A DNA stretch of 37,884 nt from a virus (Duplodnaviria; Heunggongvirae; Uroviricota; Caudoviricetes): the IMG/VR virus record IMGVR_UViG_2537562092_000002, positions 1 to 37,884 of that record; one strand, 5' to 3'. The notes beneath the pieces are model-generated. The model saw only the letters and a program-made list of their open reading frames with translations. It did not search any database and was not told the DNA's origin. A program made the translations under genes and the position numbers. Shown piece by piece: positions 1-27,649 of this stretch; position 1 is the first letter of the stretch; each line of letters begins with the position of its first letter.

Positions 1-396
1 GAAATGGACGAACAGTGGGGCTACGTCGGTGCTAAATCACGTCAGCGCTGGCTGTTTTACGCGTATGACAGGATACGGAGGACGGTTGTGGCGCACGTCT
101 TCGGTGAACGCACTCTGGCCACACTGGAGTGTCTTCTGAGCCTGCTGTCGGCCTTTGAGGTCGTGGTATGGATGACGGATGGCTGGCCGCTGTATGAATC
201 CCGCCTGAAGGGAAAGCTGCACGTTATCAGCAAGCGTTACACTCAGCGCATTGAGCGACATAACCTGAATCTGAGACAACATCTGGCAAGGCTGGGACGG
301 AAGTCACTGTCGTTCTCAAAATCGGTGGAGCTGCATGACAAGGTCATCGGGCATTATCTGAACATAAAACACTATCAGTAAGTTGGAGTCATTACC
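1..396 (+). mobile_element. IS1 right-hand end (partial; window starts inside the element)
   Basis: Sequence ends in the characteristic IS1 terminus ...cactatcagtaagttggagtcattacc at about 370..396; contains the insB 3' portion. Confidence 0.85.
4..381 (+). CDS. insB: IS1 transposase InsB, C-terminal part (5' end lies outside window)
   Basis: Translation [22 protein letters not shown]...[12 protein letters not shown] matches the well-known IS1 InsB C-terminus. Confidence 0.9.
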
Positions 397-1059
397 CAAA
401 AACACACCTCAATATAATTGAATTTAAGAAAGCACCATTCAATCACTTACAGGAAGTAATCTGATCTTCACAAAAGTCAGCTATCGAATAGCCACAGGCA
501 ACACCGCTATTGATACCCCACACACCATAAGAAGATTATTCCATACAGAAAAAATTATATTTACCCATACTTATAAACTGTAACGGAGCTATGACGTACG
601 AACTAAAGACACTACACTCTAATAGAGTTCTGGTACCTAACCAGTGTTAAATACGAACCAGACATACATTCTATGGATTAATTTTCTCAATATTACGCTA
701 TGAGTGTAGTAACATAATTTACACCACCACACTGTAGTTAGTATATGGGGAGACATTACGATAAAAAGAGATAAGTTATACCACAGATACCACCACACAA
801 TACCATAACTCCCATTAATAATACTAATTAACCTAAATTATTTATTGAACACGAAAACAATGAAGGCCCCACCTCACCTCAGACTAAAGCCGACAATATC
901 CTGAGCAACAGGATATCCAATAGTAAATAGTGGTTACACCAGTTATATTTACTGACTGACCTGTACCAGAGTTTTCTAATACAACGCTGACATGGTAAAG
1001 GCATTAGTCTCCTCCGCAAGTAGCAGAGGAGACTATATGTTAGTCAACGATTAAGTTGT

Positions 1060-2511
1060 TCAGAGGTCAAAGTTAGGTGCGACACACAACGTTTTTCCCT
1101 CAATAACCGGTACAACTCTGTTTTGTTCATACAGTAAATCCAGTAACCAGTTGATTTTATCCTTTTTCCGGAAACGGTTCGGACCACGCTGTAAAATGTC
1201 ATTTTTTTTCATACAGAGGATCCCCTTCTCAATGCAATAGCTTTTTATCCAGTTGAAAAGTTCAAGCTCCTCTGGAATGAGTCGCACAGGTACGGTCAGG
1301 GCAGGGTTGTCAAAAGTTAACGGATTAGACAACCGCACATACTCATTACCGTACCATATTGCTAATTCTCTCGCCATTTCTGCAATGTAAGGGGAAATCT
1401 CCCCCTCTTCACCGCTCGAATGGTAGATAAGTCCTGCAAGTCTTGCCATATACTCTGCATTTTTAGCAGCATATTCCCGGCAATGTCTTAAAGGCCCAAA
1501 TCCCCCCAGCTTCGATTCCACATCGTTGTAATAATCCGTCCAGATTCTGGCAGCCTGAGGAGAAAAGTGAAGGCAACGTCGTTCACCACTCATCGCCAGA
1601 CTTTCATCAATAAGCTCATTGATCCTCTGTTCAAACAAATCCTGATACTGTGATGAATAATTATCTCCGGTTATTATCCTTGTCCCCTGCGTTGATGTTG
1701 GTTGACACATCAAAAACCTTGCATGATGTCCTGACGTTTTCACAAGTTCTTTTTTTCGCGTACAAAAACCTTTGTGGTAAACATCAGGCTGAATCATCGC
1801 CGACATCGTCAGTCTTGGCTCCTTCAAATTAATTCCGGGAGATGATTTCCTGTCGATGAAAAGAGAACCTCCATCCCACAAAGTGTTAATAATTCCCAGT
1901 TTACTCATGGCCCGGCTGTCAAAAATTACCCCCCCTTCACTGGATACAAGAGCAAAAGAACGATTGCTATCGGAGTAATATTTTAACATTCCCTCTATCG
2001 TTGTCTCATTAAAAATTGTTCGACGTATCTGCGGCGGAACAGGAGACTTATTCAGATGCGTTTCAAGCTCTGATTCTGTTGCCTTGTAATCTTTACCGGC
2101 ACGAATCTCTTTATGAAATTTTGATTCCAGCGCTTTTTGTTTTTGCTCCCATATTTCCTTTTCTGTGCTGTAATTCTCAACCAGTTTCGCGTATTCTTCC
2201 GCCAGGGCTTCATCCCTGAGATAAAATGCTTTCATAAACACTTTATCCACGGTCGTTTTCCTTTCACCAGAATCAGCCAGAATCAGAGAGTAAAGATTAA
2301 CAGGCCCACGTAAATTTCCAGGTCTGCACACGTCAATCTGATTCTGACAGGCAATTGAGATCGCTGTTAATGCGGATGTCGCCACCATAGCCAAAGGTGC
2401 CTGTGTATTTTTTTGAGTTTCAATTATTGCATTTCTCACCAGCGGTGGTAGTGCATATATCGGATAAGGATTTTCTGGTGCAAGTAAGCACATAAAAGCC
2501 TCTCTTTTCAT
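1060..2511 (-). CDS. DUF3987/YfjI-like protein of P4/CP4-type islands (putative primase-helicase-associated)
   Basis: 483-aa ORF immediately downstream of an AlpA-family gene, the typical AlpA-DUF3987 module of integrative islands. Family assignment is from memory, not a search. Confidence 0.45.
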   Translation of the reverse strand: MKREAFMCLLAPENPYPIYALPPLVRNAIIETQKNTQAPLAMVATSALTAISIACQNQIDVCRPGNLRGPVNLYSLILADSGERKTTVDKVFMKAFYLRDEALAEEYAKLVENYSTEKEIWEQKQKALESKFHKEIRAGKDYKATESELETHLNKSPVPPQIRRTIFNETTIEGMLKYYSDSNRSFALVSSEGGVIFDSRAMSKLGIINTLWDGGSLFIDRKSSPGINLKEPRLTMSAMIQPDVYHKGFCTRKKELVKTSGHHARFLMCQPTSTQGTRIITGDNYSSQYQDLFEQRINELIDESLAMSGERRCLHFSPQAARIWTDYYNDVESKLGGFGPLRHCREYAAKNAEYMARLAGLIYHSSGEEGEISPYIAEMARELAIWYGNEYVRLSNPLTFDNPALTVPVRLIPEELELFNWIKSYCIEKGILCMKKNDILQRGPNRFRKKDKINWLLDLLYEQNRVVPVIEGKTLCVAPNFDL

Positions 2512-2741
2512 TAATGGGTTAGTAAAGTAGCAGCAACTCCCGCTATAATAGCGAAATAGCTGCTGTTCAGACCTAATGTTCTGAGAAATACAGAATATCT
2601 GTAGATCTGATGTTTAATAAACCGATAAGGTTAATTCAGTTCATACTGTGTTATTTACCACGAAATATCATTCATGTTTCTCATTCTTAACACCTCCTAA
2701 AATTATTTCACTAACACCTTCCCCCCGATCTTTTTCCTTTC

Positions 2742-2969
2742 TCAGGAATCAGCCAGAACCATAGTGTAAATATTAACGGGCCCACGTAAATTTCCGGGGT
2801 TGCACACGTCAATCTGATTCTGACAGGCAATTGACATCGCTGTTAATAATGATGTTGTAGTCATAGCCAGAAATGCTTTTTCATTGTGTTGAGTTTCAAT
2901 TATTGCATTTCCAGTCATTGATGGTTGCGCATATACTGGATACGGAGTATCCGGTTTGATGTAAGACAT
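2742..2969 (-). pseudogene. Truncated paralog of the DUF3987-like gene (N-terminal ~75 codons only)
   Basis: Translation ...NAIIETQHNEKAFLAMTTTSLLTAMSIACQNQIDVCNPGNLRGPVNIYTMVLADS parallels residues ~20-85 of the 1060..2511 product; the frame stops after ADS while DNA similarity continues a few codons further. Confidence 0.6.
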
Positions 2970-3074
2970 AAATATTTCCTTTTTTCGTAATAACTTTCGG
3001 TTATAGCAGCTATTTCCGCTACAATAGCAACAATAGCTGCTATACAGACTGGATATACTGAAAATACAGACAGT

Positions 3075-3323
3075 TCATCTGGTCTGTATCCAGCAGAGAA
3101 GGTCACTTAACAACCATCCGCAAGATTTCTTTCCGATAGACTTACGTGGTGGAAATGTTCCCTCCCGTTCAAGTTTCCACGCTTGTGTACGAGAAATTGA
3201 CGTGATCTCATATCGTTCCTTTTCACGTACCAGTCTGTCGCATTCAATCCCATAAGCTTTCAAAATGACCAGACGCTGTTCATCTGTTAATGGAAGCCAC
3301 ATACTACCCTCCTGATATATCAA
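3075..3323 (-). CDS. alpA: AlpA-family phage/island transcriptional regulator (HTH)
   Basis: C-terminal ...ITSISRTQAWKLEREGTFPPRKSIGKKSCGWLLSDLLCWI resembles the AlpA/Vis DNA-binding fold; it precedes the DUF3987 fragment. Confidence 0.6.
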   Translation of the reverse strand: MIYQEGSMWLPLTDEQRLVILKAYGIECDRLVREKERYEITSISRTQAWKLEREGTFPPRKSIGKKSCGWLLSDLLCWIQTR

Positions 3324-3992
3324 TACTTTTTATTTCCGGCATGAGCATGAAATGACTAAGTTTCCCGGATAAACAATGAGTGAAAGTCACTATCATTCAT
3401 CCAGTCAACACCTTACAAATAAAATGTAATACTATGATTTTTATAGGTCAAAATACTGAATTGAAATGTTAAAATGGCTTTTAATAGAAAAAATAAAGAC
3501 ATATAGAACCAAATAAAAACAAGCCGCGACCAATAAAAACAAAAATTAATATTAAAAATCCATTATGACGATTTTTGTTGACTAAAATTAGGTTGGGATA
3601 TATAAATAAATCCATGTAAAATTCAAACAAAGCATGGAGGAGTCGCAGGAAGGTGAAATATTTCCATCTAATTTGTGATAATCATCACAAAAATAAGCTA
3701 CAACAAGCGGAGGAAAAGACAATCTGTTGCTGAACAGACAGAAGCAGGCTACGAATGATCGGAAAATGAAGCAAATACGCTTATACAGAAGACGCAGAGG
3801 TAACTGACGGAGACAATCACAATCAGGAGAAAATTATCGTAAATAATGTATAAAATCTCAGGATATAAACAAATGTACACAAGCTATCCACGTAATCAGC
3901 GGCTGGCTCAGGATTAACGTTTCATTTCAGTGGACAACATCGATTCTGTCTGACAGCGGACCAATATGTAGCAAGCAGAAACTTCTGACATC

Positions 3993-5612
3993 ATGGTAAC
4001 TCGGACAATGCAACAAAAGTATCAGTATGATCGTGTTTTATCCGGCGAACTCCACCCATTCCCTGGCATATACGAGGCGGTTTCCGAACAAATCCTTTTG
4101 CTCATTTTTAAAGCACGTCAACTATATCAGGATCCAGAATATCGCCCCTGGTTTGAAGAACAGCACAGAGTACTCTCTGCATTACGTGCCAATACAGAGC
4201 TCCTGAGAATCTTTAGAGAACAAAGAAGCGCTGAAGAACCAAAGCTTACTATTGAAGAGTCTACCTCTCCCCAACCCACTCCTTCTGCTCTTACAGATGC
4301 GCTTAATGTGATGTGCCATTTATACAATGGTTTTGATGAAGGAAATATCAGTCTGAAAACCTGGGGGGCGATGCAAGAGGTACAGACAACATCAACCTTT
4401 ATCAGCCCAGGACCGAGAACCTGGAAAACACCTGAACTGGCAAAGTTTGTAGGAGATGATTTATTTAATATTCTGACTGAATGTAAAGCTTGGAGTTCAC
4501 CAATTCCAGCAGAAGCCCGGCAGGGGTATTGCCATCAGGATCTGTCTGTTGCGCACTCCTGCACCTCAGAGTTGCTGGCACACCTGAAGCAGTATCATGA
4601 AATAGATGAATCAACAATACTTGCCATAACCATTGGTCTGGCGGTTAACGAATTCTACCAGAATAAGCAAAATATTCCAGAATGGCTTTCCTGTTTTGAG
4701 AATAAGAACAAATGGCCCTGGGACTGCAGGAAGTCAGATACTGAAGATGTGCACAGACTGAGAGAACGACTATCGATAATCGGATGTACAGAATTCGTAA
4801 AAAATATGTTTTCAGTCGCCAGTCAGCGTGAAATACAGACAATGTACAATATTTATGTCCATATTTATGCAGCTGAAATCTGTGGTTGGGTAAAAACAAG
4901 CATGGCGTATTTTAAACCAACAGATTTCATCCAGTACACATGGAAATTCGCAACAGTTACTCCGGATAAAGATGAAAAAACCGAGAATACGACCGCATGG
5001 GAAAGGGATTATTGTCAGATAACCATACAACGAGATGAACTCCTTAGATTGATTCGCACTAATACTCTGCAGGATGCCGCAATTCATCTTTCAGGCTGCC
5101 TGCAATATGCATATCTGGAGTCAGTAAAGCATGATATTGACTATCCAGGAATAGCCCCTAATGCTGAAGAAAAGAAAATGAAACACACAGATTCTATTGA
5201 ATTTTCTGGAATTCGGAATAACATCATAAATGCAGTAAAACGGCTGGAATCATTTGAAAAATGGTATGAAACTAATAAAGTTTTGTTGGTAAGTAATAAA
5301 AAAATACGAACAGAGAAGATTGACGTTGTTGTACGACTTGCGGGACTGAAAGCCTATGATTTGCAGGAAGGGGTTCCGGATGGTCTGAAATGGAAAGTTA
5401 AAGATGGCATAAATGAACGCATCAAAACCGATACCAGTTTATGCCTGCCTCAGGATATCAGTGATACATCGCTAAACCGTTATCGTCACGCTGTGACGCG
5501 CATTGTCAACAACGAAATCGACACATTACTGATGGAACAGAAGAAAAAAATAAAAGATTCCCCTACAGCAAAGATCGACATGCGATCCAACCTTTATGGA
5601 GCAAATGTTTGA
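3993..5612 (+). CDS. Hypothetical protein, 539 aa, AT-rich cargo gene
   Basis: Long uninterrupted ORF preceded by a ~670-bp AT-rich intergenic region; no motif recognised by eye. Confidence 0.5.
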   Translation: MVTRTMQQKYQYDRVLSGELHPFPGIYEAVSEQILLLIFKARQLYQDPEYRPWFEEQHRVLSALRANTELLRIFREQRSAEEPKLTIEESTSPQPTPSALTDALNVMCHLYNGFDEGNISLKTWGAMQEVQTTSTFISPGPRTWKTPELAKFVGDDLFNILTECKAWSSPIPAEARQGYCHQDLSVAHSCTSELLAHLKQYHEIDESTILAITIGLAVNEFYQNKQNIPEWLSCFENKNKWPWDCRKSDTEDVHRLRERLSIIGCTEFVKNMFSVASQREIQTMYNIYVHIYAAEICGWVKTSMAYFKPTDFIQYTWKFATVTPDKDEKTENTTAWERDYCQITIQRDELLRLIRTNTLQDAAIHLSGCLQYAYLESVKHDIDYPGIAPNAEEKKMKHTDSIEFSGIRNNIINAVKRLESFEKWYETNKVLLVSNKKIRTEKIDVVVRLAGLKAYDLQEGVPDGLKWKVKDGINERIKTDTSLCLPQDISDTSLNRYRHAVTRIVNNEIDTLLMEQKKKIKDSPTAKIDMRSNLYGANV

Positions 5613-5715
5613 TCGAGCAGTAGAGTACTGAGGGGATAACCGTTCTGTTATCCCCTGTTTATTCTGCCAACTCTCAGGTCTGTCAGAGTTCCAAGAACAC
5701 GATGCGGCTGGCAAA

Positions 5716-6312
5716 TTATGCGGCTTTTCCATTAACAGATTCGGCCACAAGAACAACACCGTGTTTATTTCGATCAGGATGTTCACTCCAGATTTCTGAT
5801 TCAGGAATACTTTCCCCGTCATAGCAGATCCGATCGCCATCAAACGGATAATACCGTGCGGAATCAGTATCTAAAATAAACACTTTCAGATTCGTTGAAC
5901 GACGCGCTATATGCTGCCAGAGAGCTTTACCTCCTTCATATTGCTCGTTATCACTTAATAGTATAACGCCCGCTTTTGTGGCTATCGTTTCATATACAAA
6001 CGTCGCAAGGCCAACATCACGTACAGCACCATCAACAACAATCCCTTCAATCTGGGCAACGTCCTGCTCTTCCCAGAATTTCCGGACAAACACCCCTTCA
6101 AGCTGTGAGCGACGCTGAAGCTCCAGAGTGGCAACAACTTTATGGCGAATATCACCATCAATAACAGAAGGTGCAGCTTCGATTACCGCAGCGAACGGAG
6201 TCTTTGGATCCCAGATGATCTGGTAAAGCACGCCCTGAATAGTTACTCCATCCAGTATCGAAAAACGACGAGCTACAGTAGCAGGGGAGTAAGGCATTGG
6301 AATGACAGCCAT
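5716..6312 (-). CDS. Hypothetical protein, 198 aa
   Basis: ORF convergent with the 539-aa gene, located between the island remnant and attL; no recognised motif. Confidence 0.4.
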   Translation of the reverse strand: MAVIPMPYSPATVARRFSILDGVTIQGVLYQIIWDPKTPFAAVIEAAPSVIDGDIRHKVVATLELQRRSQLEGVFVRKFWEEQDVAQIEGIVVDGAVRDVGLATFVYETIATKAGVILLSDNEQYEGGKALWQHIARRSTNLKVFILDTDSARYYPFDGDRICYDGESIPESEIWSEHPDRNKHGVVLVAESVNGKAA

Positions 6313-6605
6313 TTTATGGCCTAAAATTTGAAAACATCAGTATCAATACTGACCTCATCAGTCTGAGCATATATTGATAAAGTTTTTATGTTTACACTCA
6401 ATAAATACCTTACCAAACAACTAATAGCGATGTCTACATTGCCATTCGACATGCTTACAATTTTTGTCAACAAGAAAGTGAATTTATATCAACGGTAAGA
6501 AGTAAACACGAGGACACCAAAACCAAATGTACACACTTTTGTGCTTTGTGTCCCCTGTGTGTACCCAAATGACAAACTGCAAGAAAATCTAGGCACACAC
6601 TTATC

Positions 6606-7315: not shown

Positions 7316-8362
7316 TTATGCTAGAGTTGAATATTCTCCATTTCCTCGGTCGGTGAGTGTTAATTCGCGGCCATTTTCTGTAAATGTAATGGCATCCAGC
7401 AGGCTTTTTCCTGTTACAGCTATACCATATCCAAGGTTATCAATCTTTGAACTGTCCTCAGATGATATTGGTATTTGTACAAGCATACCAACAACAAGGC
7501 CGTATTTGTTAATTATAGGGCCACCGCTATTCCCCCCCTTAACCCTAGCATTGAATAATAAAAAGTCTTGTGAATCTAAGTAAGAGTGACCAGAACCAAC
7601 AATTCGCCCCTTTGACAGTCGGACAAACGAATTTATATGCGAAACGTCATATAACTTTAATGCATCAAATCCTGGAATGGGTGGAAATCCTATTGATAAA
7701 ATTTCATCCAGTACCGAGGCTTTGGTTGAGACCTTAAGTGGTTGAATATTATCTTCATTCGGAATGGTTGTGAAAACTAAAGCGATATCAATACGTTCAT
7801 CGTTAGATACAAAGATTTTATGTATTGGTAAAGCCTCACCACCAGCTCTAAGTATCCTGATACTCTTCATGTCTTCAATAACATGTCTGGCTGTAAATAT
7901 CGTGTGGTTATTCCCAACAATAAAACTAGTACCAAGATCATGTGAACCATCACTTTTTTCAACAACAACAGGTAAAACGGAAGGACTAAGGCGGTCTATG
8001 ATTGACTCAAATCCATCAGCTATAAAATCATACTTTCCATATTTCGCATCTGATTCATTGAAATTCGGTGCGAAATAGCAACGGTCAAAAAGAGTATGTC
8101 CTGAAGACAATTCCATTAAAATACCTTCAGTTGCTAGCTTTTCACAATTGCGTATTAACTTCATCATATCGAGAGTATTTTCCCACTCAGGTTTGAGACG
8201 GGTCAGGCTCTCAATTGTTTTTCTCTCTTTTACGTTATCGTTTTCCGGTTTGTCATAAAAATATTTCACTATTTCTGTTGGTGTTACATATGTTTTTTTT
8301 ATAGTCATTTTTGTACCCGCGATGACGTTATTCCATATATTTTTCTTTGTAGAAAATATCAC
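7316..8362 (-). CDS. Cytoplasmic trypsin-like (S1/chymotrypsin-fold) serine protease domain protein with ~130-aa N-terminal domain of unknown function
   Basis: His/Asp/Ser triad motifs in canonical order: TARHVIED, DIALVF, GGNSGGPI (GDSGGP-like). No signal peptide. Lies in AT-rich cargo between attL and the invertase. Confidence 0.55.
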   Translation of the reverse strand: MIFSTKKNIWNNVIAGTKMTIKKTYVTPTEIVKYFYDKPENDNVKERKTIESLTRLKPEWENTLDMMKLIRNCEKLATEGILMELSSGHTLFDRCYFAPNFNESDAKYGKYDFIADGFESIIDRLSPSVLPVVVEKSDGSHDLGTSFIVGNNHTIFTARHVIEDMKSIRILRAGGEALPIHKIFVSNDERIDIALVFTTIPNEDNIQPLKVSTKASVLDEILSIGFPPIPGFDALKLYDVSHINSFVRLSKGRIVGSGHSYLDSQDFLLFNARVKGGNSGGPIINKYGLVVGMLVQIPISSEDSSKIDNLGYGIAVTGKSLLDAITFTENGRELTLTDRGNGEYSTLA

Positions 8363-8900: not shown

Positions 8901-9770
<870 letters not shown>

Positions 9771-9792: not shown

Positions 9793-9829
9793 CCGCAGCA
9801 CGATCTTGCATACGACGAGCCTGCGGTTT
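9793..9829. repeat. Hairpin-forming repeat, copy 2 (between the convergent GIY-YIG and invertase genes; possible bidirectional terminator)
   Basis: ccgcagcacgatcttgcatacgacgagcctgcggttt; outer stem aaccgcag/ctgcggtt; direct repeat of 8772..8808. Confidence 0.55.
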
Positions 9830-10419
9830 CATTTATCTCCGACCGGAAACATCTTATACAGTGTCGATACACCAACATCATAGATGATCGCTACCTTCTG
9901 GCGAGGAATTCCTGCTGCAATTAATCGTCCGGCCTGCTCCCATTGTTCTGGTGTAAGTTTGGGGCGACGTCCACCAATTCGTCCCTGTGCGCGAGCAGCT
10001 TCCAGTCCAGCTTTTGTTCGTTCAACAATCAGTTCACGCTCCATTTCAGCCAGGGCACCCATCACATGAAAGAAAAAGCGCCCCATTGGGGTACTGGTAT
10101 CAATTGAATCCGTCAGACTACGAAAGTTGATGCCTCGTTCGCGCAACTCCTCCACCAGCACGACAAGATGCCGCATACTGCGCTCCAGCCGGTCCAGTTT
10201 CCAGGCCACCAGCGTGTCACCTGCCGATAATGTCCTGAGCAGTTTTTTCAGTCCCGGCCTTTCGGACTTTGTACCGCTTATCTTGTCTTCAAAAATCAGC
10301 TCGCATCCTGCACAGTTCAGCGCATTACGTTGTAGATCTGTGTTCTGGTCATTTGTTGATACACGTACATAGCCAATAAGCATGTTAAATCCCCCTGGTA
10401 AAAGCAGGAATGATGCCAT
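9829..10419 (-). CDS. Serine-recombinase DNA invertase (Pin/Gin/Hin/Cin family); likely true start at MLIGYVRVST (~10383)
   Basis: MLIGYVRVSTNDQNTDLQ...GRRPKLTPEQWEQAGRLIAAG is the classic resolvase/invertase catalytic domain plus C-terminal HTH; adjacent to an invertible tail-fibre segment. Confidence 0.85.
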   Translation of the reverse strand: MASFLLLPGGFNMLIGYVRVSTNDQNTDLQRNALNCAGCELIFEDKISGTKSERPGLKKLLRTLSAGDTLVAWKLDRLERSMRHLVVLVEELRERGINFRSLTDSIDTSTPMGRFFFHVMGALAEMERELIVERTKAGLEAARAQGRIGGRRPKLTPEQWEQAGRLIAAGIPRQKVAIIYDVGVSTLYKMFPVGDK

Positions 10420-10907
10420 TTGCTTGTTATTTCTTCATTTTCATAAACGTTGGTTTGGGAGAAGGTGCTCCAGCTATTGGCGTTCCGTTCTTCTGGCCGT
10501 CCGCTGCAATGCCAAATACTGTAATCGACAGCTGGTCCAGTATGGTGTTTTTGAAGTTCAACGGGGCGAAATTTTCTGCCTCTGATTACCCTGTGCTGGC
10601 AGAAGTGTTTCCTTCGCTGGTATTACCTGAAGCCCGCGGTGATTTCATTCGTATCTGGGATGACGGGCGAGGTGCCGATGGTGGTCGCGAATTATTAAGC
10701 TGGCAGGAAGCTACAAACTTTTCTCAGTTTGCCGGGAATATAGGCGGAGGTGCGGGACACGCAATTAACTTTCATGATGGCATCGCCGGAAATCAGCCAG
10801 GGTTTTCACGATTTAATTTCACCAGTAACTCTGTGGGTGATGGTGTGAATTTTGTTGCTGTCAGACCGCGAAATATTGCATTTAACTTTCTTGTGAGGGC
10901 TAAATAA
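10410..10907 (+). CDS. Alternative tail-fibre C-terminal variable segment (Sv'), promoterless in this orientation
   Basis: Frame runs through the gix site (..NVGLGEGAPAIGVPFFWPS..); PFFWPS-type motif typical of Mu/P1/P2 fibre tips; no independent start expected. Confidence 0.55.
   Translation: MMPFACYFFIFINVGLGEGAPAIGVPFFWPSAAMPNTVIDSWSSMVFLKFNGAKFSASDYPVLAEVFPSLVLPEARGDFIRIWDDGRGADGGRELLSWQEATNFSQFAGNIGGGAGHAINFHDGIAGNQPGFSRFNFTSNSVGDGVNFVAVRPRNIAFNFLVRAK
10438..10463. other. Invertase crossover site (gix/hix-like), left boundary of invertible segment
   Basis: ttttcataaacgttggtttgggagaa fits the TTnTCnnAAACCnnGGTTTnnGAnAA pattern of hix/gix sites and is an inverted repeat of 12260..12285 (about 20/26). 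Confidence 0.65.
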
Positions 10908-11500
10908 TGAAACCTGTTTTTGATGAAAATGGGCTGGCGACAGTGCCGGGCGATATGCGTTGTTTTTATTATGATGCAGTAACGAATGAATATACTGGCT
11001 GGTCTGATGAATATATTAATACTGGCGTAAGTATGCCCGCCTGTTCCACTGGTATTGACCCGGGCGAATACATTCCGGGGAAAGTGGCAGTATTTACGGG
11101 TAAGGGATGGAGCCATGAAGAAGACCACCGCAATGAGACTGTTTACTCAATCGAAAATGGCGCAGCTGTTACAGTGGATTATATCGGTGCCATCAAAGAC
11201 GGTTATGTCACGCTTTCACCGTTAACGCCATACGATAAATGGGATGGTGAGAAATGGGTGACAGATACTGAGGCACAGCATAGTGCCGCAGTAGACGCAG
11301 CAGAAGCACAGCGCCAGTCGCTGATTGATGCTGCAATGGCTTCCATCAGTCTGATTCAACTGAAATTACAGGCCGGACGGAAGCTGACGCAGGCAGAAAC
11401 AACCCGACTTAACGCCGTGCTGGATTACATTGACGCGGTGACGGTAACAGATACCAGCACCGCGCCGGATGTCATCTGGCCTGAACTGCCGGAGGCGTAG
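10907..11500 (+). CDS. Alternative tail-fibre assembly chaperone (U'-like)
   Basis: Immediately follows Sv' with ATGA overlap; size and position match a Tfa/U-family chaperone inside the invertible segment. Confidence 0.55.
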   Translation: MKPVFDENGLATVPGDMRCFYYDAVTNEYTGWSDEYINTGVSMPACSTGIDPGEYIPGKVAVFTGKGWSHEEDHRNETVYSIENGAAVTVDYIGAIKDGYVTLSPLTPYDKWDGEKWVTDTEAQHSAAVDAAEAQRQSLIDAAMASISLIQLKLQAGRKLTQAETTRLNAVLDYIDAVTVTDTSTAPDVIWPELPEA

Positions 11501-11912
11501 GCCATTCAATATCTGGCGCACCGGAAGTATCGACCAGTTCCAGTGTGTCCAGATAATCCAGCCACAAATTATATTGCGCCAGTTCCTCACCTTTCAGGCG
11601 ACCAATCGCCGCTTTACCAGGCCATTGCTTACTGTTTATGTATTCGTTGACCTGATTAATCAATTGCTGCTTTTCCAGTTCGGCTGCGGCAATTTGTTCC
11701 TCATGAGTTGGCGGTGGAATATCAATCCATGCAGGCATTCCGTCGATGACGCCTCTGTATTTTCCTTCTGGTGCTTCCTTCATAAATTCGGCGGCAACAG
11801 TGTCGTCAATTTCGATTCCATCATCGGGCCATTCGCCGGATTCCTGATAAGCGATTTTAAGCTCCACAGGGAAAAACGCATTTTTATCGGCGCTGAAAAT
11901 ATATTTCTGCAT
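11472..11912 (-). CDS. Tail-fibre assembly chaperone (U-like), expressed orientation
   Basis: Follows the tail-fibre gene on the minus strand; its C-terminus overlaps the 3' end of the U' gene in convergent arrangement, as in the Mu G segment. Confidence 0.55.
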   Translation of the reverse strand: MQKYIFSADKNAFFPVELKIAYQESGEWPDDGIEIDDTVAAEFMKEAPEGKYRGVIDGMPAWIDIPPPTHEEQIAAAELEKQQLINQVNEYINSKQWPGKAAIGRLKGEELAQYNLWLDYLDTLELVDTSGAPDIEWPTPPAVQAR

Positions 11913-11914
11913 TT

Positions 11915-12628
11915 CTACCGTCCTATCGAAATATAACTGAATCTGTATTGCTGTGAGATATCACTGGTTGCCACATGCCACGCTGAATTACTGATATGTT
12001 CAAAATTTACAGACAAAACCTGCGGGGCAGGATTCGACGGGTCTGACTGAACGGCATCAGACATAACACTGACTGAAACCATCGGCTGATTAGGGAATGG
12101 TATAGGGAAGTGTCCACTGATAAAGCGGGTCGTGTTTCCTGAAAAAGTGCCAAACTGAACAATATATCCACCTGGTAGCCCGAACCATCCCGAACCAGAA
12201 GCGAATGCTCCCATATCCGGTATCTGATTATCTCCTGTGCCCACATCCCTTTTCGCCGCTTCTCCTAAACCAAGGTTTTCGAGAGCCGTTTTCACCGTGC
12301 CATCCGATTTGATATCGCCAAACGGATTCTTGCGGCTCAGGTATTCAACAGCAAACCCCGATCCCAGCAATTCAACAAAACCGGGCAGATCACCATTATC
12401 AAGCACATCCCGTTGCGTTTTATCACTTACAAACTGGGCCAGAGCTGCAGCAATAAAGCTGGCCTGCCGAATAACCTTATTGACTTGCGCACTGGATGCT
12501 TTCCCTGCTGTAAATCCGGATATAAGCGCAGGCAACGCTTCCCATTCCTCCTGCGACATAACATTGGCATTTCGATCAGTTGCAAACGCTTTAAAGTCAT
12601 TTTTCGCCATCAGAGTAATACTCCCCAT
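11915..12628 (-). CDS. Tail fibre (S-like): constant N-terminal part plus variable C-terminal part inside the invertible segment
   Basis: The gix site at 12260..12285 lies in-frame (..[13 protein letters not shown]..), so the C-terminal ~115 aa are exchangeable on inversion; follows a gp48-like gene. Confidence 0.6.
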
Positions 12629-13290
12629 GCCCCTACATCAAAACCACTGATGAATTCGTTATCCATATCAAAACCAAAAAATTTAGAGCCTTCCGATGGA
12701 GTTTCCACCGAAGGTGTTTCAATGCCCCCCGCCCATACCCCGGCGGCTTTTACTGTTAGATACCCCTGTTTAATTGCCGCAATTAACTCACGCGATACAT
12801 CTGAAATATCAGTATCAGGAAAGACCCAGACCGATATCGTCATGTCCTGGTTATCGACTATCTGCATTCGCAGCCCGGATCCTGCTGTTGCCGCGTCAAG
12901 AATTGCCGGAAGCGAATCATTCCGTCCGTCCCAGTTATTAATCGCAATCTTCGCTTTAAGAATGACACGATAAGTTTCATCGCTGAGATACATGTATCCT
13001 GAATCAGGATCGTATGGTCCCTGCCATACCCCCTGATCATATCCAAGCCCGTCGGTATCCCAGCTGAAATAGACACCTGAGATAGGCTGGCTGACAACAC
13101 GGCTACGTCCGATCCACAATCCAAGAATGTCAAGTTGCACACCAACCGCAGAGTCAATATCAAATGCAGTAATCAGCCCTCTGGTGGCAGCCGCAACATC
13201 AATAAGTGGCCGGGTCATCAGATCAACATGCGCAAGAAATTTAGGTTTGGTGGCGTGGTAGTTCGTGATTAGTTCGGTGTATTTGCTCAT
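12610..13290 (-). CDS. Phage tail/baseplate protein (Mu gp48 / P2 gpI-like)
   Basis: Position between the baseplate J-like gene and the tail fibre; 226 aa. Confidence 0.5.
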
Positions 13291-14486
13291 GACTCCACCG
13301 TTATAACGATATTTTCCGGGGTACAGGACGTAGATTCGTTGTATCTGATATCAATGTTTGATGACGACAAAGCCCCCGGGGATTTCCCAATCGTCAGTTC
13401 CTGAATATCGTAATAGCGTGCATTCCCGCCACTCACCACGCCAAGATTCGCCGGTGAGTAAATGCGACTTAAAAGGACCGAATCACCAATCATCAGACTA
13501 TTGATATAGTCGGAAATAGCCTGCTGGATCTGCTGCCCTATCTGTGAGGTATAACCCGTAAAAACTTTTAATTTAATCCGGGCGTAAACAGGCACATCAC
13601 TGGAACGCGAGAATTTGATTACATGGGGATTGCCGTATTTATCCGGAACCGTAACGGATGTTGTACCGTGAGTGGCTGTCCCCTGGCCTTTATTTCCTCT
13701 GATAGCCTGAGCAATATCCGTCACATCACCGCCATCCACAATTACAGCAACAGAGTGTGGCGGTAACCCGTTACCGTCCTCCGAACCAGTATCGTTTTCA
13801 TAGAGTTTGTGGCGGGTTACACCGGTAACATTAGAAACAGCACCATCCAGTGCTTCAAATGGGGTTATTGATGGCAACGCAACACTTTGCGACTGGCGGA
13901 TACGTAACTCCGCATCAGTTTCTGCTGGAGTGCCTACAGTAGCTGCAGCAGGATTGGTTACCGAAACCCAGCCACGGGTTGGCGTATTAATTTCAGTGAT
14001 AGTTCCAGCCAGCGCCGCCACTGCACCACTGACAGAACATTTTGCGGTCACCATCACTGTACCATCCACGCCGACCACCACTGAAGCAGGCAAACGCCAT
14101 ATCACATTATTACTGTCTTTCACGCTGCCATTAATGATGGTTGTTCCGGCAGTTCCTGTAAGAAGCAAATCAACCGTAGAATTCGTCGCGCCTTTACGTG
14201 AAATACCATTTATTTTCACGTTACTGGTCAGTGCAGCCCCATAGCCGGTTGCCGGTGAAAAACAGTTGTAGACAGTTATCGCCATATTATTGGCATCATG
14301 AATCGCCAGCGCCATCAGAGCCACCATCTGGCCGTCTTTGCTGTCCGGTTCGAGGTAGGCATCACTGCCATAAATCTGCTGAAAATAGCTAATCAGGGTG
14401 CTGAGTATCGTCTGATAATCAGGCGCACTGATCCCCTCCGCGGTTACCTTTGCAGATAAACCGAGAGAATCAAGGTTCAGAGCCAT
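13287..14486 (-). CDS. Baseplate J-like protein (Mu gp47 / P2 gpJ family)
   Basis: 399-aa ORF in conserved baseplate gene order, overlapping neighbours by 4 nt. Confidence 0.55.
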   Translation of the reverse strand: MALNLDSLGLSAKVTAEGISAPDYQTILSTLISYFQQIYGSDAYLEPDSKDGQMVALMALAIHDANNMAITVYNCFSPATGYGAALTSNVKINGISRKGATNSTVDLLLTGTAGTTIINGSVKDSNNVIWRLPASVVVGVDGTVMVTAKCSVSGAVAALAGTITEINTPTRGWVSVTNPAAATVGTPAETDAELRIRQSQSVALPSITPFEALDGAVSNVTGVTRHKLYENDTGSEDGNGLPPHSVAVIVDGGDVTDIAQAIRGNKGQGTATHGTTSVTVPDKYGNPHVIKFSRSSDVPVYARIKLKVFTGYTSQIGQQIQQAISDYINSLMIGDSVLLSRIYSPANLGVVSGGNARYYDIQELTIGKSPGALSSSNIDIRYNESTSCTPENIVITVES

Positions 14487-15655: not shown

Positions 15656-16084
15656 TTATGCAGTTAACGAGTCATCACCAATCTTCAGTAATTGATTAAC
15701 GATTGCATCGACCTCTTCCGCATCCAGAATTACACTTCTCGCGGTAATCCGGTTGATTTTCCGCTCAAGCTTGTAATCAGAATTAACACGTTGGGCATGC
15801 GTCATTTTCAGTTTAACGCCGATTTTCTTTACTGCGTTAACATCAACATCGTTAAGTGCAGCTGCCTCACCACTACAAAAGGCCGTATAGACTCGCATGT
15901 GAACTCCACCTTTTAGTTTTTCACCATCTTGTGTAGCGGTCGGTACCAGATTGTTGGTGATCCGTAAGGCGGAATGGTACATACCATAGTATGCTCGGCT
16001 AATAGCATTTCTCGTCCACATCTCACCGTTTAGAGCCAGGGAATGCTTAGCCAATTCAAGAAAACAGGTATGCTCAACCGACAT
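15656..16084 (-). CDS. Hypothetical protein, 142 aa; possibly HEPN-like; downstream gene of a two-gene cassette
   Basis: ATGA start/stop overlap with the upstream 243-aa gene; N-terminal ...RNAISRAYYGMYHSAL... resembles HEPN-type helices (R-x6-H); followed by a terminator. Confidence 0.45.
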   Translation of the reverse strand: MSVEHTCFLELAKHSLALNGEMWTRNAISRAYYGMYHSALRITNNLVPTATQDGEKLKGGVHMRVYTAFCSGEAAALNDVDVNAVKKIGVKLKMTHAQRVNSDYKLERKINRITARSVILDAEEVDAIVNQLLKIGDDSLTA

Positions 16085-16815
16085 TAGAGTTCCCCGGCTT
16101 CAAAGCATCCGACGCATTCTGAATCCGCAAGCCCCGCAATAATAATCTCATCAGCCAAGGCATTATTCATCTGCGAAAGAAGCACTGGATCGTCTGTTTT
16201 GACTTCAACGAACAGCGTATCAAGTTCTGACATTACATAAAAAACATGAGCGCCAGCAAGACGAGCGCGGTACTTTTCTGCAACGTTCATCATGAGCCGC
16301 CCAATAGTTTTTAGCTCCTGAGCATGATCTTTTTGGGTATGCAGATAATTGAGCGTGTCATACCATTTGCCCATATCTTCAGGGCGCGGTACTTCCATTG
16401 CAGTTAGCATCGGCATCACCTTTTCAAGCAAATCGATATCAACCCAGTATGCAGAAATTGTAGCAACCTCAGCCAATATCGTTGGATTAAGTGAATCAGA
16501 TGCTTTCTGAATCATCACATACTGGCGAGCATGCAAACCTAAGTTACGCAGCGCAATCGTATAGTTACAAAAAGAAACTGGATCGTTAGGCGCTATTCTC
16601 AACCCCCGCTCACAGAGTGAACATCCTTCATCTATTTCACCAAGAACAAGCTTAGCTAAGCCTTCAATTGATAGCCCCTGATAACGTTCAGGTAGTTTCT
16701 TCGCTTCACGAATGATTCGATGGATTTCAAACTCACTCAGAAGGTTTTCACCCTTAGTTAATGAAGGAGTCAGAAGATCTAACAGTTCTCCTGATTTTGG
16801 CTGCGCTAAACTCAT
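16084..16815 (-). CDS. Hypothetical protein, 243 aa; upstream gene of the two-gene cassette
   Basis: ORF preceded by a ~150-bp non-coding gap inside an otherwise tightly packed tail operon; no recognised motif. Confidence 0.45.
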   Translation of the reverse strand: MSLAQPKSGELLDLLTPSLTKGENLLSEFEIHRIIREAKKLPERYQGLSIEGLAKLVLGEIDEGCSLCERGLRIAPNDPVSFCNYTIALRNLGLHARQYVMIQKASDSLNPTILAEVATISAYWVDIDLLEKVMPMLTAMEVPRPEDMGKWYDTLNYLHTQKDHAQELKTIGRLMMNVAEKYRARLAGAHVFYVMSELDTLFVEVKTDDPVLLSQMNNALADEIIIAGLADSECVGCFEAGEL

Positions 16816-22325: not shown

Positions 22326-23471
22326 TTAGCGAACAACGTTAATCTGTACGTCAGCGTAATGAACCGCGCCTGCAAGTTTTATTGCAGCCTGAATCACCGG
22401 AGCCTTACGGGCTTCACGTTCTGATTGTGCCTGTTCATCCAGCGGCTGGGCGTATACGTAATAACCTTTGGGCAGTGTGTCACCTGATGACAACTGACCA
22501 AGGTCGCCCCCGTTCCATACGCCCGGAGCAATCAGTCCATTCTGAACGGCCTGATCCAGTGATTTTTCAACATTTGATAACAGTCGGGTAATACCGGCTT
22601 CAGTCTGGGGAACTTTCGTGGTGCTGGTATAAAGCAGGTTATAGAGGTTGGTCTGCACATAATTCTGTAACCAGTCCAGGCCGTGGCGTTCATCAAAGAA
22701 ATCGCCGTTAGCCATCACTCCCTGCTGGAGGATAGCCGTATCATTCTGGTAGTACACGAATACATTGCAGTTTTTTGCATCAAGTGCCGATGCCTGGCTG
22801 ACTGTCAGTGTTTCATACCCGACACCCGGCTCCTGCTTAAACTTGAGCGTAATCGCGGTATTACTGCCATTGAAATTAACCGTGAATACCCGGCCAAATG
22901 CAGATAACGCAGCGTATTTATTACCCGATGAATACTGAATAAAACTGCGTGAATATCCGGCGGTTTTCAGTTTTGATGCCAAATCATCGCTGGATGCAGT
23001 CTGCAGGCATTTATCATCGCTTGTCGTAATCGCCAGAATACGGCTTACAGAAGAGGATTCGATCGCCGCAGCCACTTTCAGCCAGTCTGCATCCGGAATA
23101 TCTTCATCGTCTGCAATCCCCAGCCCATACCATGAAGTATAATCGAGCATGGCATTCACAGCCTGCTCCAGCGTCTCAGGCGTGGCCTGTTCGCTGTCAC
23201 CCTTCGTTTTCACCCAACGACCAACAAAAACCTCCTGAGGTTTCGGTGATTGTGAGAAAAACACCTGCGCAGCCTTATATTCTGGTGATTCCACGCCAAA
23301 ATCTTTTCCAATATCTTCCGCGGCAGAATAACGGCGAATGCGCTCACTTACCGGAATGATTGTGGACGGGCCGAGAATGAGTAATGCACCAAAATTTCGC
23401 CCTGATGCTGCACGCGGCGACATGATCACATCAACATTAACAACGTTTGATACAGGCAAGCCCTGTGCCAT
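22326..23471 (-). CDS. Contractile tail sheath protein
   Basis: 381-aa ORF heading the tail cluster, followed by tube, chaperone and tape measure. Confidence 0.55.
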
Positions 23472-23474
23472 AGC

Positions 23475-24755
23475 TTAATCTCCGAAAAAGATGACTGGTG
23501 CTTCCACCAGCGATTTAATACCGTACTCGCGCACAACCTTCCGGCGCAGGCGCACCGTCATATCGTAGCGGCGGACCCATTGCTGATTAATAAATTCAGG
23601 GAAGGGGGTCAGACCTGTGTAATCGCCAAGAGACAGCCCCAGCGCATTCAGTGCTGCATTGTTCTGCGGTACAGATATACCGTCACGAAACCGGGACGCA
23701 TACACCATCCCCGCCGGACCATAAAACGAAGCCATACACTCAATCGTTTCATGCCGCCAGAGCTTAGAGCCATCATCGGTCTGTCTGGTGAATGCCGGAC
23801 TGTCATCACCTGACCATCCGATACCCAGTTTGATATGCGCATCAACGGCAGCCTGTACCCATTCGGATGGAATCAGGACGCCTTCCGCTGATGCGCTGTA
23901 GTTCAGATCAAGTTCCTGTGCCACCACCACCGGATTATCGATTTTCTCGCATTCCCTGCGATACCACTCTTCATCCTTGCGAGGATCATCCCGCCAGTGG
24001 AATGTGAATACCGGTATCTTCCCGCCATGACGCTTCTGAGCGAACGGGTTAGCCATGCCGTTAACTGAACTCAGGTCGATACGGCAACGCGTCGTTTGTG
24101 ACAACGCCGCATCAATCAGCAGAGGACGCTGAAGGAATGCAGCCTCATCAACCAGATAAAGCGTGGTACGGTCACCACGACCAATATTATCGCCAGCCTC
24201 GCCTTTGATAACGGCACCAGTTTCAGGAAACTCAACACGCATATATGGCGCGTGCTTCTTCTCACTCCACGAACCGCGAAACTCTACAGGTAGCGTTTCC
24301 ACGAACTTGCGCGCCTTCCAGAACAATGCTTTCGGGTCACCAGTGCTGTCGACGTATTCCTCTTTACGGGAGCCAAAACCGATAACCATTTCTTTGTTGA
24401 AGAGACAAAGCGAGCATGCCAGTCCGATCGCGGTCCAACTGAGCCCCATTTCACGGGATTTTTCGGTAATACCATTCTCCCGATTGCTCCAGCGTTCCAT
24501 AATCCAGTGGATCCACTCCTCCTGCTTAGGGAAGAGTAAAAACGGAATGGTCACCGGCAGGCCATAATCAATATTACGCGGGTCCGTTGTCATGCCCCAG
24601 TCGATGATGAACTGAGCCGGATTGGTTCGGTAAAACTGTTTTAGTGCAGGCAATATTTCAGGATTCTGGCGAATGCGCTGTAGGCGTTCCATCCGCCATT
24701 CAAAAACCATCTGGTAATCAGGATGTTTAAAATCGAAGGGGAATGGTAACGGCAT
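23475..24755 (-). CDS. Terminase large subunit (TerL), possibly C-terminally truncated or fused
   Basis: Deviant Walker A-like [11 protein letters not shown] and Walker B-like [10 protein letters not shown]; follows terS. Only ~220 aa remain after Walker B, and the next gene is the tail sheath rather than a portal. Confidence 0.6.
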
Positions 24756-24757
24756 AC

Positions 24758-25309
24758 TTAGCCCATCATTTTTCTATACGCTTCTGCAACCTGCTCCGGC
24801 GTTAAGTTGGTAATTTCTGTTCTGACTGGTCCTCCGTCAGCACCAGTCACTTCATTTTTGACATTGTCTTTAAACGCCTGAACAGAAACATGACGCCCGA
24901 GCAACTCAAGGTTTTTAACCTTATCAGGCCATTTGATTTTCTTCAGAAGTGCGGCGCTATCTGCGGATGCCATCTCCACGACATCCATTCCTGATAACGT
25001 TGTGCGCCATACCTTAGGCCAGTCTTTAATGGGTTTTAGCTCACCGTTTTGCAGGAGAATGTCAAGCACATCCATCTGGTCGATTTCAATAAGGCGATTA
25101 AGTACATATTCTGCATTAATACCAACAAGATCATTGCGTTGCGCTTTCAGTTCGGCGATTCTTAACTTGATGTCAGGTTTTGACAGGTTTTCGGATGCGG
25201 TACGGTTGGCTGTTTTTGCGCTGTACCCCGCCCGAATAGCCGCTTGCGTGGCGTTTAAATCGATGAGGTACTCGCGACAGAACATCTCTTGCTTGTCTGT
25301 GAGTGCCAT
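24758..25309 (-). CDS. Terminase small subunit (TerS)
   Basis: N-terminal [34 protein letters not shown] is typical of phage small terminase HTH regions; directly upstream of terL. Confidence 0.65.
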
Positions 25310-25761
25310 TTTTTCTCAAAGGTGAATTTATGAGCTCATTAACGTTTATCGGATTGTCACAGTTACTTTCTAGGAAAGGTGAGTTATTACAGCAAAATAC
25401 GAATGATTTATTAGAACGTGTTAACACCGCATGGAATAACAAACGAGACCTTAATAAGCAAATTTCCATAGAGCTAAATGATGGAGAGCTTGAGGTTTCA
25501 ATTCCACAGCTACGCTTTAAGTGTTTTACAGAAAGTAAGCTTTCACTTCACGAAGGCTCATTAATTGGGGTTATTACTTTTTACACATCGCGAGATGGAA
25601 AAAAACAGGAGTTTCATAAAATTTTTCTTGATTGGAACAATTGCATGCATTTTGGGGCGCTTGACTCAACAGCTCCAATAGACATCGACTATACCGAAGA
25701 TGTTGAGTATCTCTTTATGAACGCTCTAATCGATTCTGCTTATCGAAATAATTTAATCTAA
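25303..25761 (+). CDS. Hypothetical moron protein (likely start MSSLTFIG near 25330), opposite strand to late genes
   Basis: AT-rich ORF between the lysis cassette and terS, at the position and orientation of lambda bor; no lipoprotein signal; no recognised motif. Confidence 0.45.
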   Translation: MPFFLKGEFMSSLTFIGLSQLLSRKGELLQQNTNDLLERVNTAWNNKRDLNKQISIELNDGELEVSIPQLRFKCFTESKLSLHEGSLIGVITFYTSRDGKKQEFHKIFLDWNNCMHFGALDSTAPIDIDYTEDVEYLFMNALIDSAYRNNLI

Positions 25762-26203
25762 TTGATGTTGGTGGTGAACTTTTGCCACCCAGTTAATCAC
25801 TCTTAGCAGGATATAAGCCATTGTCGAGACCACTCATTGAATGGTCTCTGCAATAACCGATGTCTTTCCATCAGTCCGCCACCACAAAGAATCTTTTTTG
25901 CCATAAGGCTGGATGTTCATCTTTCAGTGGCTGCCAGTGTTATTTCCCCACTTACTGGCTTGGGTTGTTTCGCTGTACTGCCGTAACTGGTTGCCCAGAA
26001 TAAATTCCGGTTTCATTATCAAGCCCACCCGTAGATAGGCTTTGTAATGAACTGGCTCTTATCTCAACGCAGCCCCTTACCGCGCGCCAGATGCTCAACT
26101 TCAAGCATCAGCAATGAGATGTTTAATCTGGATTCACTCCAGAAGTGATCACCACCCTGTCTACAGAGCCAGATGTGAAGGATGATGAGTAAAATTATCG
26201 CTA

Positions 26204-26674
26204 TCATCGAAGGCATTGCGTCCTGATGTATTCCTGCAAGTAGTTAACCTGCGCGGTTATCCTGTCGATTCCACTTCGGAGACGGTAATAATTGAGTTCA
26301 GCATCTGCTGTAAGTCTTGGGCTTTCTCCATCGCCCATGCTGCTGGCTCCGGTCGTTGACTTTGCACAGGTGGCGGCGACTTGCAGGCGCTTACGCCCAG
26401 CAGAAACATCAGCACGGAGACTTTCGATAGTCGCGTTAGCATCAGCAAGCTCCTTTGTGTATCTTGCGTCGAGTTCTGCTACATCACGTTGACGCTTCCG
26501 CATGTCAGCGATGGTGGCGTTCGCCTTCTCCAGTTCACTGGCCTTGTTATCGCGCTGCTCTTTGTAGGCGATTGCGTTATCACGGTAATGATTAACAGCC
26601 AATGACAGGCAGACGATGATGCAGATAACCAGAGCGGAGATAATCGCGGTTACTCTACTCATTGTTGCCCCCAC
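26204..26674 (-). CDS. Rz: Spanin inner-membrane subunit Rz (i-spanin)
   Basis: [38 protein letters not shown]... closely resembles lambda Rz; follows the endolysin. Confidence 0.85.
26257..26448 (-). CDS. Rz1: Spanin outer-membrane lipoprotein Rz1 (o-spanin), embedded in Rz in another frame
   Basis: [29 protein letters not shown]... has a lipobox (LGVSAC) and Pro-rich segment, wholly inside Rz. Confidence 0.7.
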
Positions 26675-27156
26675 AAACAGACTTCACGCTCAATCTCACG
26701 GCGAGTCATCAGCCCTTTCCATTGCTTACCGCCAGCGTATGTCCAGCGCCGTAGCTGATCACATGCGCCTTTGATATCGCCCTGGTTTATTTTGCGAAGA
26801 AGCGTCGATGTTCTGAAATTTCCAGCACCAACGTTGTAAACGAACGAGTAAAGAGCGCCGCGCGTTGTTTCCGGTATATCGACTTTGATGTACGGGTTAA
26901 TTTGTCTGGCGACAGTGGCAAGGTCTTTATTCAGGAGGGCTTTGCATTCTGCTTCGGTATACGTTTTACCGAGCATAATGTCTTTTCCGGTATGCCCGTA
27001 ACATACAGTCCATACACCAACGATATCTTTATATGGTATGTAGCTGACGCCTTCCAGACCATCGTTACCACTTGGGCCAGTGATTAACACAGATGCTATA
27101 GCAATAGCCCCGCCACCAATAGCCGCAGCAACGGCTTTTCGTAATGATGGAGGCAT
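26659..27156 (-). CDS. R: SAR endolysin (lysozyme, phage 21 R-type)
   Basis: N-terminal signal-anchor-release segment [20 protein letters not shown] followed by a lysozyme domain; matches phage 21 R as recalled. Confidence 0.85.
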
Positions 27157-27371: not shown

Positions 27372-27489
27372 AGCAACGCCTCCGCCAGTAACGGATTGCG
27401 TAGTTCTTATATTGGGAAGGGAGAAAAAGAAGACCGCAGCATAACTATCACTGATGAATTCAGGACATCCAGTGGCTACGGCTCAGTTA

Positions 27490-27565: not shown

Positions 27566-27570
27566 ATATT

Positions 27571-27645: not shown

Positions 27646-27649
27646 AAAT

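Follow-up and report, generated by a model that had tools for sequence, protein, structure and literature searches.

Natural inversion of a Pin-type tail-fiber segment in an Escherichia coli prophage with a glutamate in the active-site motif of its invertase

Results

The DNA analyzed here, referred to throughout as the window, is the 37,884-nucleotide (nt) stretch of IMG/VR virus record IMGVR_UViG_2537562092_000002 from positions 1 to 37,884. Our subject is a tail-fiber segment of about 1.82 kb, measured from center to center (10451..12272), which is bounded by two inverted recombination sites, holds two alternative fiber tips with their chaperones, and lies beside a gene for a Pin-type serine DNA invertase; when the segment is inverted in silico, the product matches a natural isomer. 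The original prediction had described this region as a switch resembling the G segment of phage Mu, based on the window alone.

Two 26-base-pair (bp) sites bound the segment. The invertase-proximal site L (10438..10463) reads TTTTCATAAACG-TT-GGTTTGGGAGAA, with the crossover placed at the central TT (10450-10451), and the fiber-proximal site R (12260..12285), which lies inside the fiber coding frame (...ENLGLGE...), reads TTCTCCTAAACC-AA-GGTTTTCGAGAG. Compared as an inverted repeat, L and R agree at 20 of 26 positions and are identical at the central dinucleotide (TT/AA), and their half-sites follow TTCTCNNAAACC, so that the pair has the form of the inverted 26-bp imperfect palindromes of Din systems. 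The segment measures 1,848 bp from outer edge to outer edge and 1,822 bp between the site centers. The pair is missed by a default repeat finder with a 9-nt seed because the longest exact run shared by L and R is 7 nt; with a 7-nt seed, it ranks first among the inverted repeats of the region (90% complementary over 20 nt). As queries independent of the window, we used the sites of the e14 P segment of E. coli K-12, taken from NC_000913. These matched the window only at L and R, with 0 and 1 mismatch, respectively, and 0 of 100 shuffles gave a match. Site L is identical at 26/26 positions to the pinE-proximal site of e14 and contains, verbatim, the P-segment repeat TTGGTTTGGGAGAAGG as given in PMC12529663, whereas site R is identical at 25/26 positions to the stfP-side site; alignment to the gix sites of Mu gave 17-19/26. 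The positions and inverted orientation that had been called for the two sites are thereby upheld. The window has no third recombination site, so that this is a two-state switch, and a multi-site shufflon, as in p15B or the P2-like prophages of enteropathogenic E. coli, was rejected on the same ground.

The tail operon runs leftwards through Baseplate_J (13287-14486, minus strand), a baseplate wedge gene of the DUF2612 family (12610..13290, minus strand; Pfam, 3.8e-47), and, directly downstream of the latter, the fiber gene, which is the last gene of this late operon; the order of wedge gene and fiber is the same in strain PEC399 and in ON470588. The expressed fiber (11915-12610, minus strand) comprises 231 amino acids if it starts at 12610. 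This start, at which the fiber overlaps the stop of the wedge gene (ATGA overlap) as annotated in PEC399, is most likely on the sequence, and it replaces the position 12628 that had been proposed. The constant N-terminal part of the fiber (12273..12610, minus strand; about 113 amino acids) lies outside the segment, with phrog_1396 and phrog_11303 matching residues 1-120. Homology of this part to the Mu Sc protein was considered and rejected, as the BLASTP comparison was not significant despite the match to the 504-amino-acid phrog_1396.

Within the segment lie four genes arranged as two convergent pairs of tip and chaperone, as the original prediction had stated for this interval of 1.85 kb. 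Tip A, which is expressed now (11915..12259, minus strand), adds 114 amino acids after LGLGE, with matches to Pfam Gp53-like_C (1.1e-07) and to the C terminus of phrog_2557; the co-oriented chaperone A (11472..11912, minus strand; 146 amino acids) belongs to Pfam Caudo_TAP (2e-34), and exactly this protein is widespread in Enterobacteriaceae. Tip B, silent now (10464..10907, plus strand), adds 147 amino acids of a collar-type fiber family after GLGE, within a frame that is open from 10410 to 10907 on the plus strand, and is followed by the co-oriented chaperone B (10907..11500, plus strand; 197 amino acids; Caudo_TAP, 1.3e-26; phrog_105). The 3' ends of the two chaperone genes overlap by 29 nt.

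Both fiber frames read through the sites, as had been claimed. The motif LGLGE, however, had been claimed at both junctions, and this does not stand as such: the expressed frame at R reads ENLGLGE and the silent frame at L reads NVGLGE (FINVGLGEGAPAIG across the site), so that GLGE alone is common to both. After exchange at the central TT, the predicted fusion would read ENLGLGEGAPAIG, in which LGLGE is restored. The predicted alternative fibers have 231 and 264 amino acids, and the 264-residue form, which bears tip B, matches phrog_3100 (7.7e-78) and phrog_523 ("tail collar fiber") and is the called fiber gene in two natural inverted isomers, ON470588 and contig L012 (GCA_030324865.1). Exchange of tip and chaperone is borne out by L012, but the size of the swapped C terminus, put earlier at about 115 amino acids, holds for tip A alone (114 versus 147 for tip B).

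The adjacent invertase (9829..10383, minus strand; 184 amino acids, with Ser9 in MLIGYVRVSTNDQ) has the domain composition of a small serine recombinase, with Pfam Resolvase (5.6e-50) followed by HTH_7 (1.5e-14). Residues 1-181 align with Mu Gin (PDB 3UJ3) at E = 1.7e-92 and approximately 75% identity, and the gene is 95.0% identical to K-12 pinE over 638 nt of DNA, with 7 amino acid differences. RefSeq annotates its relatives as pinE, and we treat the gene, referred to here as pin, as a PinE ortholog; the Pin/Gin-type assignment made earlier was correct.

Invertases of the Hin family require an enhancer of about 65 bp, which carries one Fis site at either end and lies about 100 bp from the nearer recombination site (PMC3798978). 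A search of the 5' coding region of pin, which had been suggested as a check, found a candidate Fis-dependent enhancer at 10299..10361: the degenerate Fis consensus KNNYRNNWNNYRNNM is matched at two 15-bp cores (10347-10361 and 10299-10313), centered at coding nt +30 and +78 and thus 48 bp apart, the proximal core lying 97 bp from the center of the left site. The +30 and +78 matches are common to the window, K-12 pinE, PEC399 pinE, and Mu gin, and a pair at such spacing within the first 120 nt occurred in 0.66% of dinucleotide shuffles. Identity to Mu gin is 79% in this region and 70% over the full gene. Hin contacts Fis through Q151, R154, and L155 (PMC3798978), and the corresponding residues are conserved here, with WEQAGRL (148-154) providing Q150, R153, and L154. 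These features are consistent with a putative Fis enhancer at 10299-10361. A scan for sigma-70 promoters and terminators around pin and the silent open reading frame (ORF) found no more than expected by chance.

The evidence for inversion comes from public genomes, including 5,426 complete E. coli genomes and the records labeled L003-L017. We built the inverted isomer in silico by reversing 10450-12273 and searched with it alongside the native form, counting the records that matched either query over at least 80% of its length. Native order was found in 102 records from complete genomes and inverted order in 150, so that both orientations, detection of which had been proposed as a check, do occur. 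The inverted construct matches L012 in one piece at 2900/2901 bases, and the native order matches L009 (GCA_000242035.1) at 2901/2901 bases. In related strains, single-piece matches of equal score for the two forms lie at the same chromosomal locus (records H4-H6 versus H31-H48), and there are sister strains that differ in orientation alone, i.e., RIVM_C036204 and C040753 versus RIVM_C029670 and C040348, and BH100 versus BH100N. Among contigs that encode exactly the invertase of the window, three are native (L009-L011) and four are inverted (L012-L015), and a further two (L016 and L017) end inside the left site at window position 10448, as expected for mixed populations in which both continuations are present.

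The fiber-side site of L012 is the predicted hybrid CTCTCGAAAACC TT GGTTTGGGAGAA, composed of the outer half of R and the inner half of L, which brackets the exchange to a 7-bp interval (10450-10456) that includes the central dinucleotide. Both orientations occur with the exchange inside the sites, as in Din systems, and the inversion and its breakpoints are observed directly rather than merely deduced. Altogether, we conclude, with a probability of roughly 90%, that the locus is a two-state invertible tail-fiber segment of the Pin/P-segment kind, which falls under the Hin-Gin-Cin-Pin family of invertases.

Two substitutions, V60A and G67E (codons at about 10183-10206), set the invertase apart from K-12 PinE, from Gin, and from its nearest relatives. 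In the active-site motif D-R-L-G-R, D64, R65, and R68 are present, and G67 is replaced by Glu. At the DNA level, pin is a mosaic: nt 1 to approximately 200 differ at a single base from a frameshifted, truncated pin pseudogene, which sits in a decayed prophage beside paoCD in E. coli ET358, L9, 160-11H1, and EC-07 (L004-L007), and nt ~200-555 are identical to an intact pinE (L003). A 46-mer with GAG occurs in only four of the 5,426 complete genomes, all of which have the paoCD-side remnant. The mosaic suggests that pin underwent gene conversion by, or recombination with, a remnant residing at the same locus of the chromosome, and on the sequence, the 5' 200 nt of pin look imported from the decayed pseudogene. 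Even so, at least 25 contigs of independent assemblies encode exactly this invertase.

Orientation also varies at loci whose own invertase is dead or truncated. The four remnant loci L004-L007 share the same frameshifts and differ in orientation, and an ST38-type prophage (ON470588; H4-H6 versus H31-H48) in which the invertase is truncated to 104 amino acids occurs one way round in 3 complete genomes and the other way round in 18. This points to inversion in trans by the invertases of other prophages, which is the simplest reading of these flipped loci. For the same reason, we rejected the occurrence of both orientations among contigs with the exact invertase as proof of its activity.

The element is carried by an E. 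coli prophage that combines a lambdoid left arm with a tail module like that of the myovirus SEN34. Identity of this module is 97% to prophage-derived records, e.g., vB_EcoM-611R5, and about 81% to Salmonella phage SEN34; an intact prophage in strain PEC399 is collinear with it. The integrase adjoins a proA-like gene, a 417-amino-acid ORF of the aldehyde dehydrogenase family that flanks the prophage at the right end of the window. We considered whether the carrier is e14 in icd and rejected this, since the P region alone matches e14 and the flank is proA-like, not icd; the window lacks the gene set of e14, with only pin/P-segment pieces and one 33-nt stretch in common.

Between the small terminase gene terS (24758-25309) and the sheath gene (22326-23471), there is a single ORF (23475-24755, minus strand; context 22326-28790), an in-frame fusion of 426 amino acids. 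The N-terminal part of a lambdoid TerL makes up its first ~311 residues, and its last 115 correspond, at 98% identity, to positions 68-182 of the neck terminator in the intact relative. The prophage has no portal, scaffold, or capsid genes. The lysis genes, Q antiterminator, NinG, and integrase are retained, and the sheath, the tube, and the whole tail and baseplate module are present. The TerL/neck-terminator junction was found in 0 of the 5,426 complete genomes, but 22 contigs, drawn from isolates and metagenomes that are independent of one another, encode exactly this fusion protein, downstream of one or the other of two lysis cassettes. The head-less carrier is genuine and transmitted; it is a defective prophage or, with lower probability, a tailocin.

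Several neighboring features were recorded. Contig L008 (GCA_965257645.1, CBDGPK010000057.1) joins this pin allele, together with tip B and chaperone B, to a P2-like baseplate (Tail_P2_I) and a 447-amino-acid fiber, so that the pin/tip cassette moves between unrelated tail modules. Beyond pin lies a GIY-YIG (LEM-3-like) gene (8946-9770, plus strand) with a full-length match to the defense gene PD-T4-3 (PADLOC, 8e-140), in the same position as mcrA in e14. A trypsin-like peptidase gene (Trypsin_2; 7316-8362, minus strand), which travels with pin and PD-T4-3 on most contigs, has weak matches to the protease modules of the defense systems RT-Protease_XI, LmuA, and HamA and to the ABC-3C C-terminal domain. 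Window positions 1-6500 form a separate block of low guanine-plus-cytosine content (0.37-0.43), possibly a further island separating the chromosome from the end of the prophage. It includes a fragment of an IS1 transposase (4-381), a gene for a DUF3987 protein (1060-2511), and two ORFs that match no family (3993-5612 and 5716-6312). In the baseplate region (15656-16815, minus strand), two ORFs of 142 and 243 amino acids without a Pfam match stand at the place of two shorter hypothetical genes of PEC399 (366 and 345 nt) and may reflect module replacement or insertion.

Discussion

The segment is a real but textbook-type switch, a close relative of the long-known P segment and Pin of e14; all that is out of the ordinary is the mutation in its invertase and the absence of head genes from its carrier. 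By its sequence, it appears to be a P-segment/Pin cassette sitting in another prophage, in keeping with the known modular exchange of such cassettes. The e14 P segment itself flips in culture (PMC4272514; PMC12529663). By analogy with its family, a dimer of the serine invertase would bind each 26-bp site, and the two sites would meet at an enhancer within the 5' end of pin to which Fis is bound; all four strands would then be cut at the central TT/AA through Ser9, and half of the tetramer would rotate by 180 degrees before the ends are rejoined. The 1.82-kb segment would be reversed in this way, fusing the stem either to tip A with chaperone A or to tip B with chaperone B, and the particles made would carry one of two receptor-binding tips. 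The Fis dependence, the subunit rotation, and the effect on receptor specificity are what we infer from the family.

Several observations weigh against a resident switch that functions in this manner. G67E falls between two catalytic arginines of the near-invariant DRLGR motif, and Glu occupies this position in 0 of 117 scorable close homologs (all Gly) and in 0 of 147 aligned diverse representatives (Gly in 118, Ala in 18, and Ser in 6). The 5' ~200 nt that carry G67E match the frameshifted pseudogene of a decayed prophage. Both orientations are seen, yet activity of the resident invertase is not thereby proven. Without head genes, moreover, the host range of a virion may not be the selected function here. 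The earlier claim that the invertase completes a host-range switch is therefore on uncertain ground here, given G67E and the lack of head genes.

The alternative that survives best is a switch locked in cis, which we judge to be a serious contender at slightly less than even odds. G67E, with or without V60A, would cripple the resident invertase, and the segment would flip only through another Din-family invertase acting in trans, i.e., a homolog of PinE, PinQ/PinR, Gin, or Cin, and would otherwise stay in its present orientation. This accords with the absence of Glu67 from about 264 homologs, of which some 97% have Gly, Ala, or Ser, and with the match of the allele to that of the frameshifted pseudogene. 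Action in trans is plausible because the four remnant loci share their frameshifts yet differ in orientation and the ST38-type prophage with a 104-residue invertase is found both ways; in addition, PinQ of prophage Qin inverts the e14 segment (PMC12529663). However, the invertase gene is otherwise full length and intact, its exact product on at least 25 contigs of independent assemblies indicates that it is not rapidly decaying, and relatives tolerate Ala and Ser at position 67. A literature search for mutants of the equivalent glycine (G70 in resolvase) found no experimental results.

A second alternative, which we regard as unlikely, concerns what the switch would serve. The prophage may be a tail-producing unit without heads, similar to a tailocin, in which inversion toggles a killing spectrum rather than the host range of a virion. 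Apart from the retained TerS and TerL fragment, the gene content, from which the carrier is known here, fits an R-type tailocin: TerS and the TerL/neck-terminator fusion are followed by the full tail and baseplate module with no portal or capsid genes, the lysis cassette, Q antiterminator, and integrase are kept, and the fusion protein recurs in independent samples, on 22 contigs that have either of two lysis cassettes upstream. Carotovoricin Er, as cited in PMC4272514, offers a precedent. Speaking against such a unit, the junction is found in none of the 5,426 complete genomes, and the neck/tail terminator, shortened by 67 amino acids and fused to foreign sequence, may block completion of the tail; a single deletion in a decaying prophage accounts for the same facts. 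A slightly more doubtful proposition still is the combined one, in which the carrier would be a circulating, head-less, lysis-competent E. coli tailocin with a contractile tail, whose range is toggled by P-type inversion, flipped in trans with its own Pin disabled by G67E.

Least probable of all is that inversion acts in host anti-phage defense, as proposed for e14, with a chimera of a 17-amino-acid leader (MMPFACYFFIFINVGLGE) and a tip being expressed from the promoter-distal copy and blocking a phage receptor, for although an ATG at 10410 opens an ORF that crosses the site and enters the silent tip, as in K-12 stfE, the e14 chimera StfE2 is reported to block T2 adsorption (Kirigo et al. 2025, PMC12529663), and the known defense gene PD-T4-3 directly adjoins pin, the promoter scan upstream of the 10410 ORF found no promoter-like site, the tips are not the K-12 alleles (one shares 39% identity and the other none), and the proposal rests on a single recent study of another allele.

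Inversion by Pin of the P segment has been known since the 1980s, and the two-state tail-fiber switch described here adds nothing new in principle. It is useful for annotation: a "partial phage tail protein" beside pinE is an alternative fiber tip, not a pseudogene, and differences in orientation between assemblies are biological rather than assembly errors. The natural Gly-to-Glu change in the active-site motif of a serine recombinase, apparently derived from a pseudogene, would provide a test case for action in cis versus in trans, and the head-less element with tail, lysis, and regulatory genes, present in many samples, could be an E. coli tailocin with switchable specificity.

Among known systems, carotovoricin Er, a tailocin of Pectobacterium, combines a head-less contractile tail module with fiber inversion of the Din type (as cited in PMC4272514; PMC13195805); it differs in having a P2-like tail, in its genus, and in that tails and killing have been demonstrated there. 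The hix sites of Hin are 26 bp long with an AA/TT center, as here, its enhancer of about 65 bp lies about 100 bp from the nearer site (PMC3798978), similar to the candidate in pin, and the Fis-contact residues are conserved. Unlike the present system, Hin flips a promoter that serves flagellin genes rather than fusing coding regions, and hin lies inside its own segment.

The G segment of Mu follows the same logic as the segment described here, with a constant fiber part, Sv-U and Sv'-U' cassettes, and an invertase gene outside the segment. The start codon of the invertase is 67 bp from the site center in both, the invertases are ~75% identical, and matches to the Fis consensus stand at the same coding positions. 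On the other hand, the Mu segment measures about 3 kb compared to 1.8 kb here, the central dinucleotide of gix is TC/GA instead of TT/AA, the sites agree at only 17-19 of 26 positions, and the fibers have no significant similarity (Mu S). Resemblance to the G segment, as first proposed, is thus correct for the class of switch, that of Gin, Pin, and Hin, but not for the closest relative, which is the e14 P segment with PinE.

The differences from e14 lie in the backbone (beside proA here, in icd for e14), in the tips (39% identity between tip B and StfE, and no relationship between tip A and the tip of StfP), in the constant part of the fiber, which is unrelated upstream of its last 34 amino acids, and in the V60A and G67E changes of the invertase. 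What is shared is more extensive. The gene order is the same (stfP-tfaP / tfaE-stfE-pinE), the segments measure 1,822 bp here and 1,827 bp in K-12 between site centers, and a defense gene lies beyond pin in both (PD-T4-3 here and mcrA in e14). At the DNA level, identity extends over pin together with the left site (9828-10465, 95.0%), the stretch that encodes the C-terminal halves of the two chaperones (tfaP/tfaE; 11219-11627, 90.5%, including the 29-nt overlap), and the right-site region (12251-12337, 93.1%), beyond which only the 33-nt stretch matches; the 34 amino acids around the crossover are 82% identical to StfP. Because the sites are identical or nearly so, at 26/26 and 25/26 positions, pin is 95% identical, and the fiber has no significant similarity to Mu S, the e14 P segment rather than the Mu G segment is the closest known relative of this switch.

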